Source: an uncultured Candidatus Saccharibacteria bacterium
GTDB taxonomy: Bacteria; Patescibacteriota; Minisyncoccia; Phycocordibacterales; UBA918
DNA length: 64,000 bases
Direction of reading: 5' to 3'
NCBI GenBank assembly: GCA_964399295.1
Contig: CAYNQD010000001.1
Span: 399,672-463,671 of the forward strand
Shown piece by piece: positions 15,993-18,639 of this stretch. Under the pieces are notes generated by a model that saw only the letters and a program-made list of their open reading frames with translations, made no database searches and had not been told where the DNA came from. Both the position numbers and the translations under genes were made by a program. Each line of letters starts with the position of its first letter. Position 1 is the stretch's first letter.

Positions 15993-16039
15993 CGCTAAAA
16001 TTTTATTACTTCAATATGCCAGCATTATATAATAGTTTT

Positions 16040-16065
16040 GGGAACTATATACAAAGTTACCCTAG
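16040..16065. repeat. Left terminal inverted repeat of IS1595-family element (plus flanking TSD ATAGTTTT at 16032-16039)
   Basis: Reverse complement matches 18438-18462 exactly. Confidence 0.85.
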
Positions 16066-16166
16066 CAGTATAACAGAAGCCCTACCTTGTTTGACATTGT
16101 AGGGTTTTATGGTGTATGGATAAACGGAGTTGACAACCCTAATCTGATCGTATAAGATAGGTAGTA

Positions 16167-17081
16167 ATGAAAGAGTATAAAACACTAATTGACTTCCTCG
16201 CCCACTACAAGGACGAAGAAACCTGCAAGAAATACTTTGAGCAAATCCGTTTCAAAGACGGTGATTACTGCCCTCACTGCAACCACAGTAAGATAAACCG
16301 ATTTGCTGACGGCAAGCGTTACCGTTGTGCGTCTTGTAAAAAGGACTTCACTATTAAGACTGGTACTGTGTTTGGCGAAAGTAAAATCCCCCTACAGAAG
16401 TGGTTTGTGGCTATTTACCTACTTACTACCAACAAAAAAGGTATTTCTTCTATAAACCTAGCCAAGCAAATCGGAGTTACTCAAAAGACAGCGTGGTTTA
16501 TGGATCATCGTATCCGAGCAACGATGAAGCAAAACGGCGGACAGCTTTTTGGAAAGGTAGAAGTGGACGAAACCTACATTGGTGGCAAGGAAAAGAACAA
16601 GCACGCTCACAAGCGAACTAAAGGCACACAAGGACGTAATACACTTACCAAAACACCAGTTGTAGGTTTGGTACAGCGTGGCGGTAACGTGAAAGCTAGT
16701 GTAGTAGAAGATGTAAAAATGCGAACACTTGAAAGTATGATTGTTGAACACGTCAAAATCGGTTCAGAGCTTTTTACTGACGAGTTTCTTTCATACTCAA
16801 AAATAGGCACTCTTTACCCTCACCAGTCTGTATCTCACGGAAAAGGACAGTATGTAAAAGGTGAAGCACACTCAAATACTATGGAAAGTTTTTGGGCTAC
16901 ATTCAAGCGTGGTTACTATGGTACTTACCACACAATGAGCAAGAAGCATTTACAAAAGTACGTCAATGAGTTCGTGTTCCGTCACAACAGCCGTACCGCT
17001 TCATTGGTCGATGTATTTGCTGACGCAGTTACTAGAGTGTCGGAAAGCACACAACTTCCGTATAATAAACTTACTGCTTAA
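16167..17081 (+). CDS. IS1595-family transposase (N-terminal zinc ribbon + ISXO2-like DDE domain)
   Basis: 304 aa; CPHCNHSK...RYRCASCKK zinc ribbon; ISXO2-like core (GGKEKNKHAHKR, FTDEFLSY, HQSVSHGKGQY, TMESFWA). Confidence 0.85.
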   Translation: MKEYKTLIDFLAHYKDEETCKKYFEQIRFKDGDYCPHCNHSKINRFADGKRYRCASCKKDFTIKTGTVFGESKIPLQKWFVAIYLLTTNKKGISSINLAKQIGVTQKTAWFMDHRIRATMKQNGGQLFGKVEVDETYIGGKEKNKHAHKRTKGTQGRNTLTKTPVVGLVQRGGNVKASVVEDVKMRTLESMIVEHVKIGSELFTDEFLSYSKIGTLYPHQSVSHGKGQYVKGEAHSNTMESFWATFKRGYYGTYHTMSKKHLQKYVNEFVFRHNSRTASLVDVFADAVTRVSESTQLPYNKLTA

Positions 17082-17082
17082 T

Positions 17083-17967
17083 ATGGGACGAGACAAAAAA
17101 TATCACGAACCCATAGACGCTTCATTTGATGAGGTACTTACTGCAATCGGTACAGAAAACCGACCAGAAATTATAGTGCCTAACGCACGACCATTTGTAA
17201 AATGGGTAGGTGGCAAGCGTTCTATATTGCCCGAGCTTATCAAGCGTATGCCTGAAAGCTATGACGCATACCATGAGCCGTTTATGGGTGGTGGAGCGTT
17301 ATATTTTGCCCTACAACCTAAAGAAGCGTATTTGTCTGATATAAACTTTCACCTAGTTATTACTTACCAAGCAGTACGCAACGATGTCGAGCGACTTATT
17401 ACCTTACTCAAAGGACACGAACGCAATCACAACAAAGAGTATTATGGGCGACAGCGTGAACGACTAGCTAAAGAGAAAGATCCAACTAAACTTGCTTCTG
17501 TTTTTATCTATATCAACAAGACGTGTTTTAATGGACTTTACCGAGTGAATAAAAGCGGTGGGTACAATGTTCCTATGGGTGACTATAAGAACCCTGCTAT
17601 CCTAGACGCTGACAATCTACGAGCGTGTTCTGCACTACTCAAATCTGCTAATGTCACACAGCATAGCTTCAAACAGGCGGAAATATACAAAGACGACTTT
17701 TACTACCTCGATCCGCCATATCACGAAACTTATAGTGGGTATAGTGGTGATGGTTTTGGTGACTCTGAACACGTTGCATTGGCTCAATTTTGCCACCAGA
17801 TACACAAAAAAGGCGGTTTCTTTATGCTCTCAAATAGCGATACTCCGTTTGTAAGAGATCTATATAAGGGCTATAATATTGAAACGGTATCGGCTTCTCG
17901 CTTCGTATCGTGTAAATCTCATCAACGTGGAAAAGAAGACGAGCTTATCATCAGAAATTATAAATAG
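17083..17967 (+). CDS. D12-class (Dam-family) N6-adenine DNA methyltransferase
   Basis: ATG at 17083 immediately after transposase stop; VKWVGGKRSILPEL, EPFMGGGA (motif I) and DPPY (motif IV) in D12/Dam order; ORF-track 16966 start is an upstream extension through the transposase 3' end. Confidence 0.85.
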   Translation: MGRDKKYHEPIDASFDEVLTAIGTENRPEIIVPNARPFVKWVGGKRSILPELIKRMPESYDAYHEPFMGGGALYFALQPKEAYLSDINFHLVITYQAVRNDVERLITLLKGHERNHNKEYYGRQRERLAKEKDPTKLASVFIYINKTCFNGLYRVNKSGGYNVPMGDYKNPAILDADNLRACSALLKSANVTQHSFKQAEIYKDDFYYLDPPYHETYSGYSGDGFGDSEHVALAQFCHQIHKKGGFFMLSNSDTPFVRDLYKGYNIETVSASRFVSCKSHQRGKEDELIIRNYK

Positions 17968-18445
17968 CCCCATTATTGGTGGGAGACAAGCAACCGTAAC
18001 GGGCAATACCCTAGAGCGATTTGTTGAACGTACCTTGCTTGATAATGGCTATTTAGAGTTTACGGGCAACCGAAAGCAACTATTTGAGAGCAGAGCCAAC
18101 GTAGGCGGAAAACAATATGCCAAACAAGTGCCTTGCGGTACGAGTATTTATGAAAGCCCCCGCAAGTGCGATTTTCTCATTATAAACAAAGAGAGGTTTC
18201 CAAATGACCTCATTATTGAGTGTAAATGGCAACAGAGTAACGGTAGTGTAGACGAAAAGTACCCCTTTACGCTTTTCAATATCATTAAAATCGGATTACC
18301 GACCATTATTCTGCTAGACGGTGGAGGTTATAAACGCACTGCTATGGAATGGCTTAAAAACCAAGTCAACCCTAACAGGGCTTTAATTGGTGTTTACAAT
18401 ATGTCCGAGTTTCAAGCCCTCGTTAACAAACGATTTTTAGGGTAA
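17879..18445 (+). CDS. Putative PD-(D/E)xK restriction endonuclease partner of the Dam-type MTase (start uncertain)
   Basis: CDFLII...IIECKWQ fits D...ExK nuclease core; lies immediately 3' of a Dam-type MTase inside the IS; ATG at 17879 overlaps the MTase by 89 nt, alternative TTG near 18032; stop codon lies in the right TIR. Confidence 0.45.
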   Translation: MKRYRLLASYRVNLINVEKKTSLSSEIINSPIIGGRQATVTGNTLERFVERTLLDNGYLEFTGNRKQLFESRANVGGKQYAKQVPCGTSIYESPRKCDFLIINKERFPNDLIIECKWQQSNGSVDEKYPFTLFNIIKIGLPTIILLDGGGYKRTAMEWLKNQVNPNRALIGVYNMSEFQALVNKRFLG

Positions 18446-18462
18446 CTTTGTATATAGTTCCC
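18438..18462. repeat. Right terminal inverted repeat of IS1595-family element (TSD ATAGTTTT 18463-18470)
   Basis: Reverse complement of 16040-16065. Confidence 0.85.
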
Positions 18463-18639
18463 ATAGTTTTTTTATTTAATATTAAAATCAAAATGCGTGA
18501 TATCTTTTTCGACATCTGAAGACAGCTTCGTGTAAAGGGAGACGGCTTCCACGTCCACATTATCTGCTTGTAAGAACATAAAAAAATATAATACTGAGTC
18601 TCCTTTAATTACAAATATTTATCTAGTCTGACAAAACAA

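Follow-up and report, generated by a model that had tools for sequence, protein, structure and literature searches.

Here we show that a 2423-bp segment of the window, the whole 64-kb stretch of DNA that was analysed, is a recently inserted mobile element. On the strength of comparative sequence analysis we consider it likely that this is a transporter insertion sequence (IS) of the IS1595 family that is intact and active, that it has transposed recently, and that it carries as stable cargo a small type II restriction-modification (R-M) system, probably specific for GATC. The original prediction treated such cargo as uncommon; the element belongs to a widespread lineage whose three genes have co-evolved.

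The ends of the element and its insertion site

The perfect 25-bp terminal inverted repeats claimed from the first reading of the sequence were reproduced at all 25 positions, and the 8-bp sequence ATAGTTTT is indeed identical outside both ends (Table 1). The left repeat, GGGAACTATATACAAAGTTACCCTA, has precisely two occurrences in the 64 kb of the window, both free of mismatches, against 0 matches expected from 100 shuffles, and the same repeat also bounds relatives that are inserted at other sites. An empty site had been predicted, and was found in the closely related strain L087 as ...CATTATATAATAGTTTTTTTATTTAAT..., with one copy of ATAGTTTT between flanks that are 98-99% identical to those in the window. 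The proposal that the element was inserted recently, with the ClC gene on one side and a small ORF on the other, held. Because the ends and the duplications are replicated and an empty site exists, a chance repeat is ruled out. Only one copy of the element is visible in the window, a point against the preferred interpretation.

Assignment to the IS1595 family was also upheld, the Pfam and NCBIfam transposase models being matched far above their thresholds. The first gene product scores 154.6 bits on DDE_Tnp_IS1595 (PF12762; 2.7e-45, cut-off 27), 43.5 bits on Zn_ribbon_IS1595 (PF12760; 3.1e-11, cut-off 25.4) and 206 bits on the IS1595 transposase model NF033547 (4.9e-61, cut-off 75). All 31 related elements share the catalytic residues D134, E240 and K247, and 30 of the 31 have D205; pN/pS for the transposase is 0.00-0.03. 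With its DDE transposase and zinc ribbon, its terminal inverted repeats and its 8-bp duplication, the element is a member of IS1595. The nearest named transposase relative that we encountered was that of ISPepr2, at 42% identity, and the element ends, GGGAACTAT and GGGAATTAT, fit the consensus for ISNwi1 ends, ggnnatTAT. Members of ISNwi1 that carry passenger genes are 1.75-4.75 kb long.

The claimed order of transposase, methylase and nuclease genes between the repeats was borne out. According to the mechanism that we propose, the DDE transposase would recognise the 25-bp terminal repeats and insert the 2.4-kb unit into AT-rich targets with duplication of 8 bp, probably by a copy-out route with a circular intermediate, by analogy with the relative MTnSag1.

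Table 1. Coordinates of the element and its component features within the window.
Feature	Position	Strand	Remark
Left 8-bp target-site duplication, ATAGTTTT	16032..16039	.	Identical to 18463-18470
Whole transporter IS, 2423 bp	16040..18462	+	Moves as a single unit
IRL, left terminal inverted repeat, GGGAACTATATACAAAGTTACCCTA	16040..16064	+	25/25 match to right end
Predicted transposase/operon promoter, TTGACA, 17-nt spacer, TAAGAT	16130..16158	+	10/12 match to sigma-70 consensus
GATC in promoter spacer, invariant	16146-16149	.	Just upstream of -10 element
IS1595-family DDE transposase, 304 aa, N-terminal zinc ribbon	16167..17081	+	Pfam, NCBIfam
Dam/DpnM-like N6-adenine DNA methyltransferase, 294 aa, alpha group, D12 class	17083..17967	+	PF02086, TIGR00571
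Small PD-(D/E)xK nuclease, 172 aa, putative half-size DpnII-like restriction endonuclease	17927..18445	+	Pfam PDDEXK_11
IRR, right terminal inverted repeat	18438..18462	-	Holds last two codons and stop codon of the nuclease gene
Right 8-bp target-site duplication, ATAGTTTT	18463..18470	.	Identical to 16032-16039

Spread and co-divergence of the three genes

Homologues of the nuclease were located at 80 genome loci, the hosts of which are mostly assigned from metagenome bins, a point that weakens the host assignments. A Dam-like methylase adjoins the nuclease in 78 of these, in tandem at most loci and convergently in cyanobacteria, and in 31, spread over at least a dozen phyla, the gene immediately upstream encodes an IS1595 transposase. 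A perfect 8-bp AT-rich duplication together with conserved inverted repeats could be recognised in 18 of the 31 transposase-bearing loci, in other phyla. A copy that is 97.7% identical and has an identical transposase protein (L003) lies at an unrelated site with the duplication GTTTTTGA, and a second, 89% identical, is found in a Paceibacterota MAG (L007) with the duplication TAAAATTA; the same three genes and repeats, with other 8-bp duplications, are present at 17 further genome loci. The three genes have travelled together across many bacterial phyla as a widespread lineage, with the methylase and nuclease as predicted passenger genes inside the ends of a transporter IS.

The distance matrices of the three proteins are closely correlated (Mantel r 0.88-0.91, with none of 2000 permutations as high), the value for methylase against nuclease being 0.91. 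pN/pS is 0.00-0.05 across all three genes (0.02-0.04 for the methylase), a sign of strong purifying selection, and in view of these two results we judge the unit to be stable and functional.

The nuclease-methylase pair is found without a transposase at 49 of the 80 loci, including a whole cyanobacterial clade in which the genes are convergent, and so appears to be separable from transposition. This bears directly on a reading in which the two proteins are not cargo and the nuclease belongs to the transposition machinery, as a second-strand cutter at the ends resembling TnsA of Tn7. Since transposase-less pairs are this common we reject that reading, which we regard as extremely improbable; furthermore, many IS1595 elements and their plasmid relatives transpose by means of the transposase alone (PMC5704250), and TnsA ranked far below restriction enzymes.

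No copy of the three-gene element was present in the plasmid collection, which gave one weak match to the nuclease only and contained transposase relatives of at most 48% identity with unrelated neighbouring genes. Longer relatives of the element have extra ORFs, for which no Pfam match was found. A description of the lineage was not found in the searchable literature using PDDEXK_11/PF20472, or ISNwi1, IS1595 and ISXO2 with restriction, and its members may already have been curated in ISfinder.

The predicted restriction-modification pair and its specificity

The methylase gene begins 2 nt beyond the point where the stop codon of the transposase gene ends, as the original prediction had it, and the D12 class assigned there was confirmed by a match to PF02086 at 2.8e-57. 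The protein scores 281 bits on the Dam-family model TIGR00571 (cut-off 115), its best solved relative is M1.DpnII (2dpm; 9.8e-57), and it carries the FxGxG (EPFMGGGALY) and DPPY motifs.

The third gene encodes a separate protein with an intact catalytic site. The D...ExK nuclease core ascribed to it is substantiated by a match to Pfam PDDEXK_11 at 1.5e-36 and by residues D82, E98 and K100, which are invariant in the family, and its stop codon (18443-18445) does fall within the right repeat. A length of 188 aa had been proposed, and the reading frame is open from TTG 17879 to that extent. However, homologues are 164-172 aa long and gene callers choose GTG 17927 on identical copies, so the longer reading is probably excessive and a protein of 172 aa, from a start that overlaps the methylase gene by 41 nt, is the likelier product.

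How this nuclease relates to known restriction enzymes was addressed with the Pfam model for DpnII (PF04556), which matches 20 of 25 members of the nuclease family. Eight relatives that are 60-65% identical to the window nuclease score 23.1-28.1 bits, the gathering threshold of the model being 23 bits, and the nuclease in the window itself gives no reportable match to it. All of the matches are confined to about positions 139-272 of the 278 in the profile, the C-terminal, catalytic half, and DpnII-family enzymes are about 280-300 aa in length, whereas the window nuclease corresponds to the C-terminal half only. By these sequence criteria the family is a distant, half-length relative of DpnII and not a full member. 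R.LlaDCHI of pSRQ700 can be aligned over this region and its motifs, although hhalign of the family profile with this one sequence, in which the catalytic motifs coincided, gave a non-significant E value of 0.22. Foldseek against the PDB returned no significant match for the nuclease, a PDB sequence search with the single nuclease and with the family profile returned nothing meaningful, and no restriction-enzyme model in PADLOC or NCBIfam matched it.

That the cargo is an R-M pair, as had been put forward, is nevertheless a strong inference, supported by the linkage of the two genes in two different arrangements and by the relatives that pass the DpnII threshold. We think it very unlikely that the methylase is instead an orphan Dam regulating the element or its host, with the nuclease acting as a MutH/Vsr-type repair nickase or a toxin.

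The modification introduced by the methylase is most likely G(m6A)TC, and unmethylated GATC is the most likely target of the half-size DpnII-like nuclease. A genuine R-M cargo with another recognition site, for example GATATC or a longer site containing GATC, is unlikely, but there are reasons for considering it. D12/Dam-family methylases include enzymes of other specificities, and of DpnII only the C-terminal half is represented in the nuclease, whose specificity could differ because the N-terminal half is absent. Against this, the characterised enzyme to which the methylase is most closely related, DpnM, acts at GATC, the score on the Dam-family model is high, and the only restriction-enzyme homology of the nuclease family that lies above threshold is to DpnII. 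The methylase residues are also conserved at the positions reported by Horton et al. 2006 as the GATC contacts of EcoDam.

In the host part of the window, and only there, GATC is more strongly depleted than any other 4-bp palindrome, with 137 sites observed where 232 are expected, which favours GATC as the site. Across 67 host flanks it ranks only third (0.81), and inside 26 elements its depletion (0.59) does not exceed that of CCGG, GGCC or TCGA, every G+C-containing 4-bp palindrome being depleted there, so that in the elements and in most host flanks the effect is not specific to GATC. We therefore regard GATC avoidance as weak evidence for specificity. A further GATC, invariant in position, is found in the predicted promoter of the elements and again argues against a different recognition site.

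A possible feedback loop, and relationship to known systems

The promoter motif, TTGACAaCCCta...TGATC.t.Ta, is common to 23 distinct elements, in all of which the position of GATC is fixed, and was not found upstream of 32 methylase-nuclease pairs that have no transposase. Between copies with a synonymous divergence of about 8-14% and 39-50%, the 127-bp leader shows only 2 and 7 differences, respectively. An internal promoter-like site ahead of the nuclease start (17849-17877) is not above chance, 8 such sites being found in the region where 6.7 are expected. The three genes would form one operon, read from the conserved promoter in the 127-bp left end, with the methylase early and nearly abutting the transposase gene and the nuclease last, from a weak GTG start inside the methylase gene. 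With this order and the weak start, a genome newly entered by the element would be protected before it is exposed to restriction.

The invariant promoter GATC suggests that the methylase may feed back on expression of the element and down-regulate its own operon once the host has been methylated. In IS10 and IS50 the transposase promoter has a GATC in or beside its -10 element and is down-regulated by host Dam. The window element resembles them in the placement of the GATC, but those elements use host Dam whereas this one encodes its own methylase. A bolder version of the idea, which we advance only tentatively, is a self-contained epigenetic switch in which the element methylates its own promoter GATC and in this way times its own movement. 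On entry into an unmethylated genome there would be a burst of transposase, methylase and nuclease, serving establishment and transposition, and methylation of the genome and the promoter would then silence all three genes. If this is true, a transposon and an R-M system have been fused into one co-evolving selfish unit. Mutual benefit is predicted in either direction: the transposase would give the R-M system mobility, and the R-M system would provide the host with phage defence and impose a penalty for loss of the element.

Precedents exist, in the form of passenger-carrying IS1595 elements and one decayed R-M unit from Neisseria (PMC5704250, PMC2853133). The transporter ISs MTnSag1 (lnuC, Streptococcus agalactiae) and tISCpe8 (lnuP, Clostridium perfringens) carry passengers within 25-bp terminal inverted repeats, and insertion of elements of this type duplicates the target; their cargo is one lincosamide-resistance gene and a transfer origin (PMC5704250). 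The window element shares with them an IS1595-type DDE transposase with passengers, 25-bp repeats and target duplication, but differs in having as cargo a predicted R-M system of two genes, which has diverged in step with the transposase across phyla, and in having an invariant GATC in its promoter. In Neisseria gonorrhoeae NCCP11945, a transposon-like R-M unit has terminal inverted repeats matching at 26/26 bp and an 8-bp target duplication, and the corresponding site is empty in a related genome (Furuta, Abe and Kobayashi 2010, PMC2853133). Its three ORFs include R-M genes, namely a truncated type IIG enzyme and an S subunit, and a gene with the transposase motif COG3677, and it is a single case in which the transposase is considered by the authors to be likely inactive (PMC2853133). 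Inverted repeats, an 8-bp duplication, an empty site and three ORFs combining R-M and transposase genes are thus common to both; in contrast, the window element is intact, its genes are under purifying selection and it is a member of a large family. With the DpnII, LlaDCHI and MboI systems it shares a DpnM-type methylase beside a PD-(D/E)xK enzyme homologous to the catalytic region of DpnII, but DpnII-type systems often have two methylases, as on pSRQ700, whereas here there is one, inside an IS.

Movement of R-M systems between genomes has long been argued mostly indirectly, from unusual base composition, from the proximity of mobility genes and from a small number of transposon-like units. 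The element provides a clean natural case, a complete predicted R-M pair inside a minimal 2.4-kb IS, with an empty site and several independent insertions, and since it belongs to a co-diverging, multi-phylum lineage under purifying selection, the proposed alliance of transposon and R-M system can now be tested directly with a very small construct. The analysis also suggests a likely function, that of a half-size DpnII-like restriction enzyme, for the uncharacterised Pfam family PDDEXK_11, and places a compact, mobile, putative defence system in the small genomes of CPR bacteria, among them Paceibacterota.

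An IS1595-family element and its insertion sites

The element measures 2423 bp, and its outline as originally predicted, with perfect 25-bp terminal repeats, a flanking 8-bp direct repeat and an IS1595/ISXO2-type transposase, was confirmed in each of these respects. The repeat occurs exactly twice in the window, no match being obtained in any of 100 shuffles, and the eight bases directly outside both ends read ATAGTTTT. Neither the repeat core nor any of the three genes was found again elsewhere in the 64-kb window, which is part of a 594,086-bp contig. The insertion point lies, as had been noted, between the ClC channel gene and a small ORF, at the 3' ends of this convergent pair, and is a harmless position. 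The transposase matches IS1595 models far above threshold (PF12762, 2.7e-45; PF12760, 3.1e-11; NF033547, 206 bits, cut-off 75), and its catalytic pattern is D-D-E with a lysine seven residues past the glutamate: when 31 related elements were aligned, D134, E240 and K247 were found in every one and D205 in all but one.

Coordinates of features of the element in the window
Feature	Position	Strand	Remarks
Terminal inverted repeats GGGAACTATATACAAAGTTACCCTA	16040-16064 / 18438-18462	+ / -	0 mismatches
Predicted sigma-70-like promoter	TTGACA 16130-16135; TAAGAT 16153-16158		17-nt spacer; best such site in region
IS1595-family transposase, 304 aa	16167-17081	+	PF12762, PF12760, NF033547
D12-class Dam-family N6-adenine methyltransferase, 294 aa	17083-17967	+	PF02086, TIGR00571

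A search of related genomes for the empty site, suggested with the original prediction, located it in L087, a related strain contig from Logan run SRR16797981. Both flanks are 98-99% identical to the window and the element is absent; the junction, ...CATTATATAATAGTTTTTTTATTTAAT..., carries a single ATAGTTTT and is identical to the window sequence from which the element and one of its two flanking duplicates have been removed. The filled site is present in runs SRR16797977 and SRR16797978. A second site (L003/L004) holds a 97.7% identical copy with an identical transposase protein, in unrelated context and with the duplication GTTTTTGA, and a third, in a Paceibacterota MAG (L007), holds an 89% identical copy with the duplication TAAAATTA. 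The three genes of the element move as a single unit.

A putative restriction-modification cargo

The D12-class assignment of the methyltransferase is upheld by PF02086 (2.8e-57) and TIGR00571 (281 bits; cut-off 115). Among proteins of solved structure, the GATC methylase M1.DpnII (2dpm, 9.8e-57) comes closest and E. coli Dam next, and the SAM-binding motif EPFMGGGALY and catalytic DPPY are present in the alignments. Among the residues that we take to be the GATC contacts of EcoDam (Horton et al. 2006), K9, N120, L122, R124, P134 and Y138 are conserved, and Y119 is replaced by F, likewise the residue in DpnM.

The third ORF belongs to a nuclease family (Pfam PDDEXK_11, 1.5e-36) and ends within the right repeat, as proposed; the proposed length of 188 aa is probably too great, since gene callers on identical copies begin at GTG 17927, which gives a most likely product of 172 aa and an overlap of 41 nt with the methylase gene. 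The 486 homologues detected are mostly 164-172 aa long. The Pfam DpnII model (PF04556) is matched by 20 of 25 family members; relatives 60-65% identical to the window nuclease score 23-28 bits (gathering threshold 23), always at profile positions of about 139-272 of 278, and for the window nuclease itself no reportable Pfam DpnII match was found. Residues 157-271 of R.LlaDCHI of pSRQ700, a genuine GATC enzyme (PF04556, 3.6e-86), align to the family with motifs in register in a single-sequence comparison that is not significant. On these matches the family looks like a half-size relative of the DpnII catalytic part. For the nuclease, nothing further came from Foldseek or a sequence search against the PDB, nor from PADLOC or NCBIfam, and no characterised enzyme of the family was found in a literature search. 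Because the nuclease would be DpnII-like and the methylase is DpnM-like, GATC is the most likely site of the putative pair, a specificity that we hold to be fairly probable. The element would best be explained as an active IS1595-family transporter IS carrying a type II restriction-modification (R-M) system; the reading of an R-M cargo within an IS, offered at the outset from the sequence alone, is supported here, and we consider it highly probable.

In the window outside 16040-18462, none of the 16 four-base palindromes is as depleted as GATC (137 observed, 232 expected; 0.59); GGCC comes next (0.69) and the other 14 lie at 0.86-1.00, which suggests past GATC- and GGCC-specific restriction in the lineage, predating the strain-level insertion. 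In a set of 67 host flanks GATC ranks no higher than third (0.81). Inside 26 related elements all G+C-containing 4-bp palindromes are depleted (observed/expected 0.51-0.74; CCGG 0.51, GGCC 0.57, TCGA 0.58, GATC 0.59) and AT-only palindromes, at 0.84-0.96, are not. The pattern resembles restriction avoidance of a general kind by a promiscuous element and gives no GATC-specific evidence.

Distribution and co-divergence of the lineage

A survey with the nuclease family profile, using one genome per species, confirmed 450 loci, the best 80 of which were examined. A Dam-like methylase adjoins the nuclease in 78 of these 80, in tandem in most loci and convergently in a cyanobacterial clade. In 31 an IS1595 transposase, 41-97% identical to that of the window, lies directly upstream, giving the order transposase, methylase, nuclease; the bins that host them have been assigned to Paceibacterota, Saccharibacteria, other CPR groups, Bdellovibrionales, Verrucomicrobiota, Planctomycetota, Acidobacteriota, Desulfobaccales, Chloroflexota, cyanobacteria and Alpha-, Beta- and Gammaproteobacteria. 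Both inverted repeats (core GGGAAYTATATAC...TACCCTA) were found in 25 of the 31, and perfect 8-bp duplications, all different and each at least 6/8 A/T, in 18. Pairwise distances of the three proteins correlate strongly (Mantel r 0.91, 0.88 and 0.91; 0/2000 permutations as high), from which it follows that cargo and transposase were inherited together, without repeated capture. Copies at different sites give pN/pS of 0.00-0.05 per gene; all three genes are kept by selection.

Transposase-bearing elements are scattered across the tandem clade of the nuclease tree, with none in the convergent cyanobacterial clade. Two transposase-less methylase-nuclease pairs (L019, L031) retain a recognisable right repeat beside the nuclease stop, with no transposase within more than 5 kb upstream, which suggests that they are decayed, immobilised remnants. 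On JGI contig Ga0207952_1000011 (L119, 12438-13432), a 995-bp element with exact 25-bp repeats at both ends contains the last ~62 transposase codons only, with neither methylase nor nuclease, and looks like an internally deleted, non-autonomous derivative. Four metagenome contigs (L092, L095, L099, L122) carry the exact repeat of the window with three proteins only 65-77% identical; here the ends are far better conserved than the genes.

Longer relatives (2.7-3.4 kb) have one or two additional ORFs, mostly on the opposite strand between left repeat and promoter (L008, L009, L011, L014, L015, L023, L026, L027, L030), or between methylase and nuclease (L055). None has a Pfam match; a Cys-rich ORF of roughly 100-140 aa is common to L014, L015, L023, L027 and L030. 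The three-gene arrangement is also present on IMG/VR contigs classified as viral (L124, L125, L127, L128), and it may owe its spread between phyla in part to phages or prophages. Nearly identical 2399-bp elements with the same repeats, a nuclease distance near zero and different insertion sites occur in a Bdellovibrionales bin (L012) and a Moraniibacteriota bin (L013), reflecting either very recent inter-phylum transfer or mis-binning.

An invariant GATC in the predicted promoter, and relation to known elements

The -10 hexamer lies nine bases upstream of the transposase ATG. The motif TTGACAaCCCta...TGATC.t.Ta is common to 23 distinct elements, with GATC fixed 10 nt after the -35 hexamer and the intervening bases variable; of the tetramers found at this position across the TTGACAnnCC sites of the loci, GATC accounts for 23 and no other for more than two. 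Upstream of 32 tandem methylase-nuclease pairs that lack a transposase, the motif does not occur. Between copies with a synonymous divergence of about 8-14% and 39-50%, the 127-bp left end shows only 2 and 7 differences. The transposase promoters of IS10 and IS50 are Dam-sensitive, and this parallel suggests that the element's methylase could repress the operon once its DNA is methylated. A protein-binding site would account equally well for the conserved bases, and we advance epigenetic self-regulation only tentatively. The ACCCTA that follows the -35 hexamer (16136-16141) repeats the inner end of the terminal repeat, TTACCCTA (16056-16064), and in a more distant subgroup (left ends of L048, L052, L062 and L069) the -35 TTGACA lies within the terminal repeat, GGTAACTATATACTTGACAGACCCA; a transposase-binding site and the promoter may overlap, with possible autoregulation.

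Transporter IS are an established concept (PMC9330008), and the passenger-carrying IS1595 elements MTnSag1, for which a circular intermediate was observed, and tISCpe8 have 25-bp repeats and lincosamide-resistance genes (PMC5704250). In Neisseria gonorrhoeae, Furuta et al. (2010; PMC2853133) described a unit with 26-bp repeats and an 8-bp duplication that combines an S subunit and a truncated type IIG R-M gene with a transposase-like gene, probably inactive, and they asked whether such units owe their movement to the transposase or to the R-M genes. In the literature searched, with ISfinder and REBASE outside the search, we found no description of a minimal IS1595 element that is intact and carries both members of a type II R-M pair, nor, in the same literature, of the cross-phylum spread and co-divergence of the three-gene element or its invariant promoter GATC. 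The ISNwi1 group of ISfinder presumably includes members with passenger genes and ends (ggnnatTAT) similar to those of the window element, and some members of the lineage may already be curated there. The element is not categorically new; as an example of a transposon and an R-M system that evolve as one unit, it is unusually clean and amenable to experiment.
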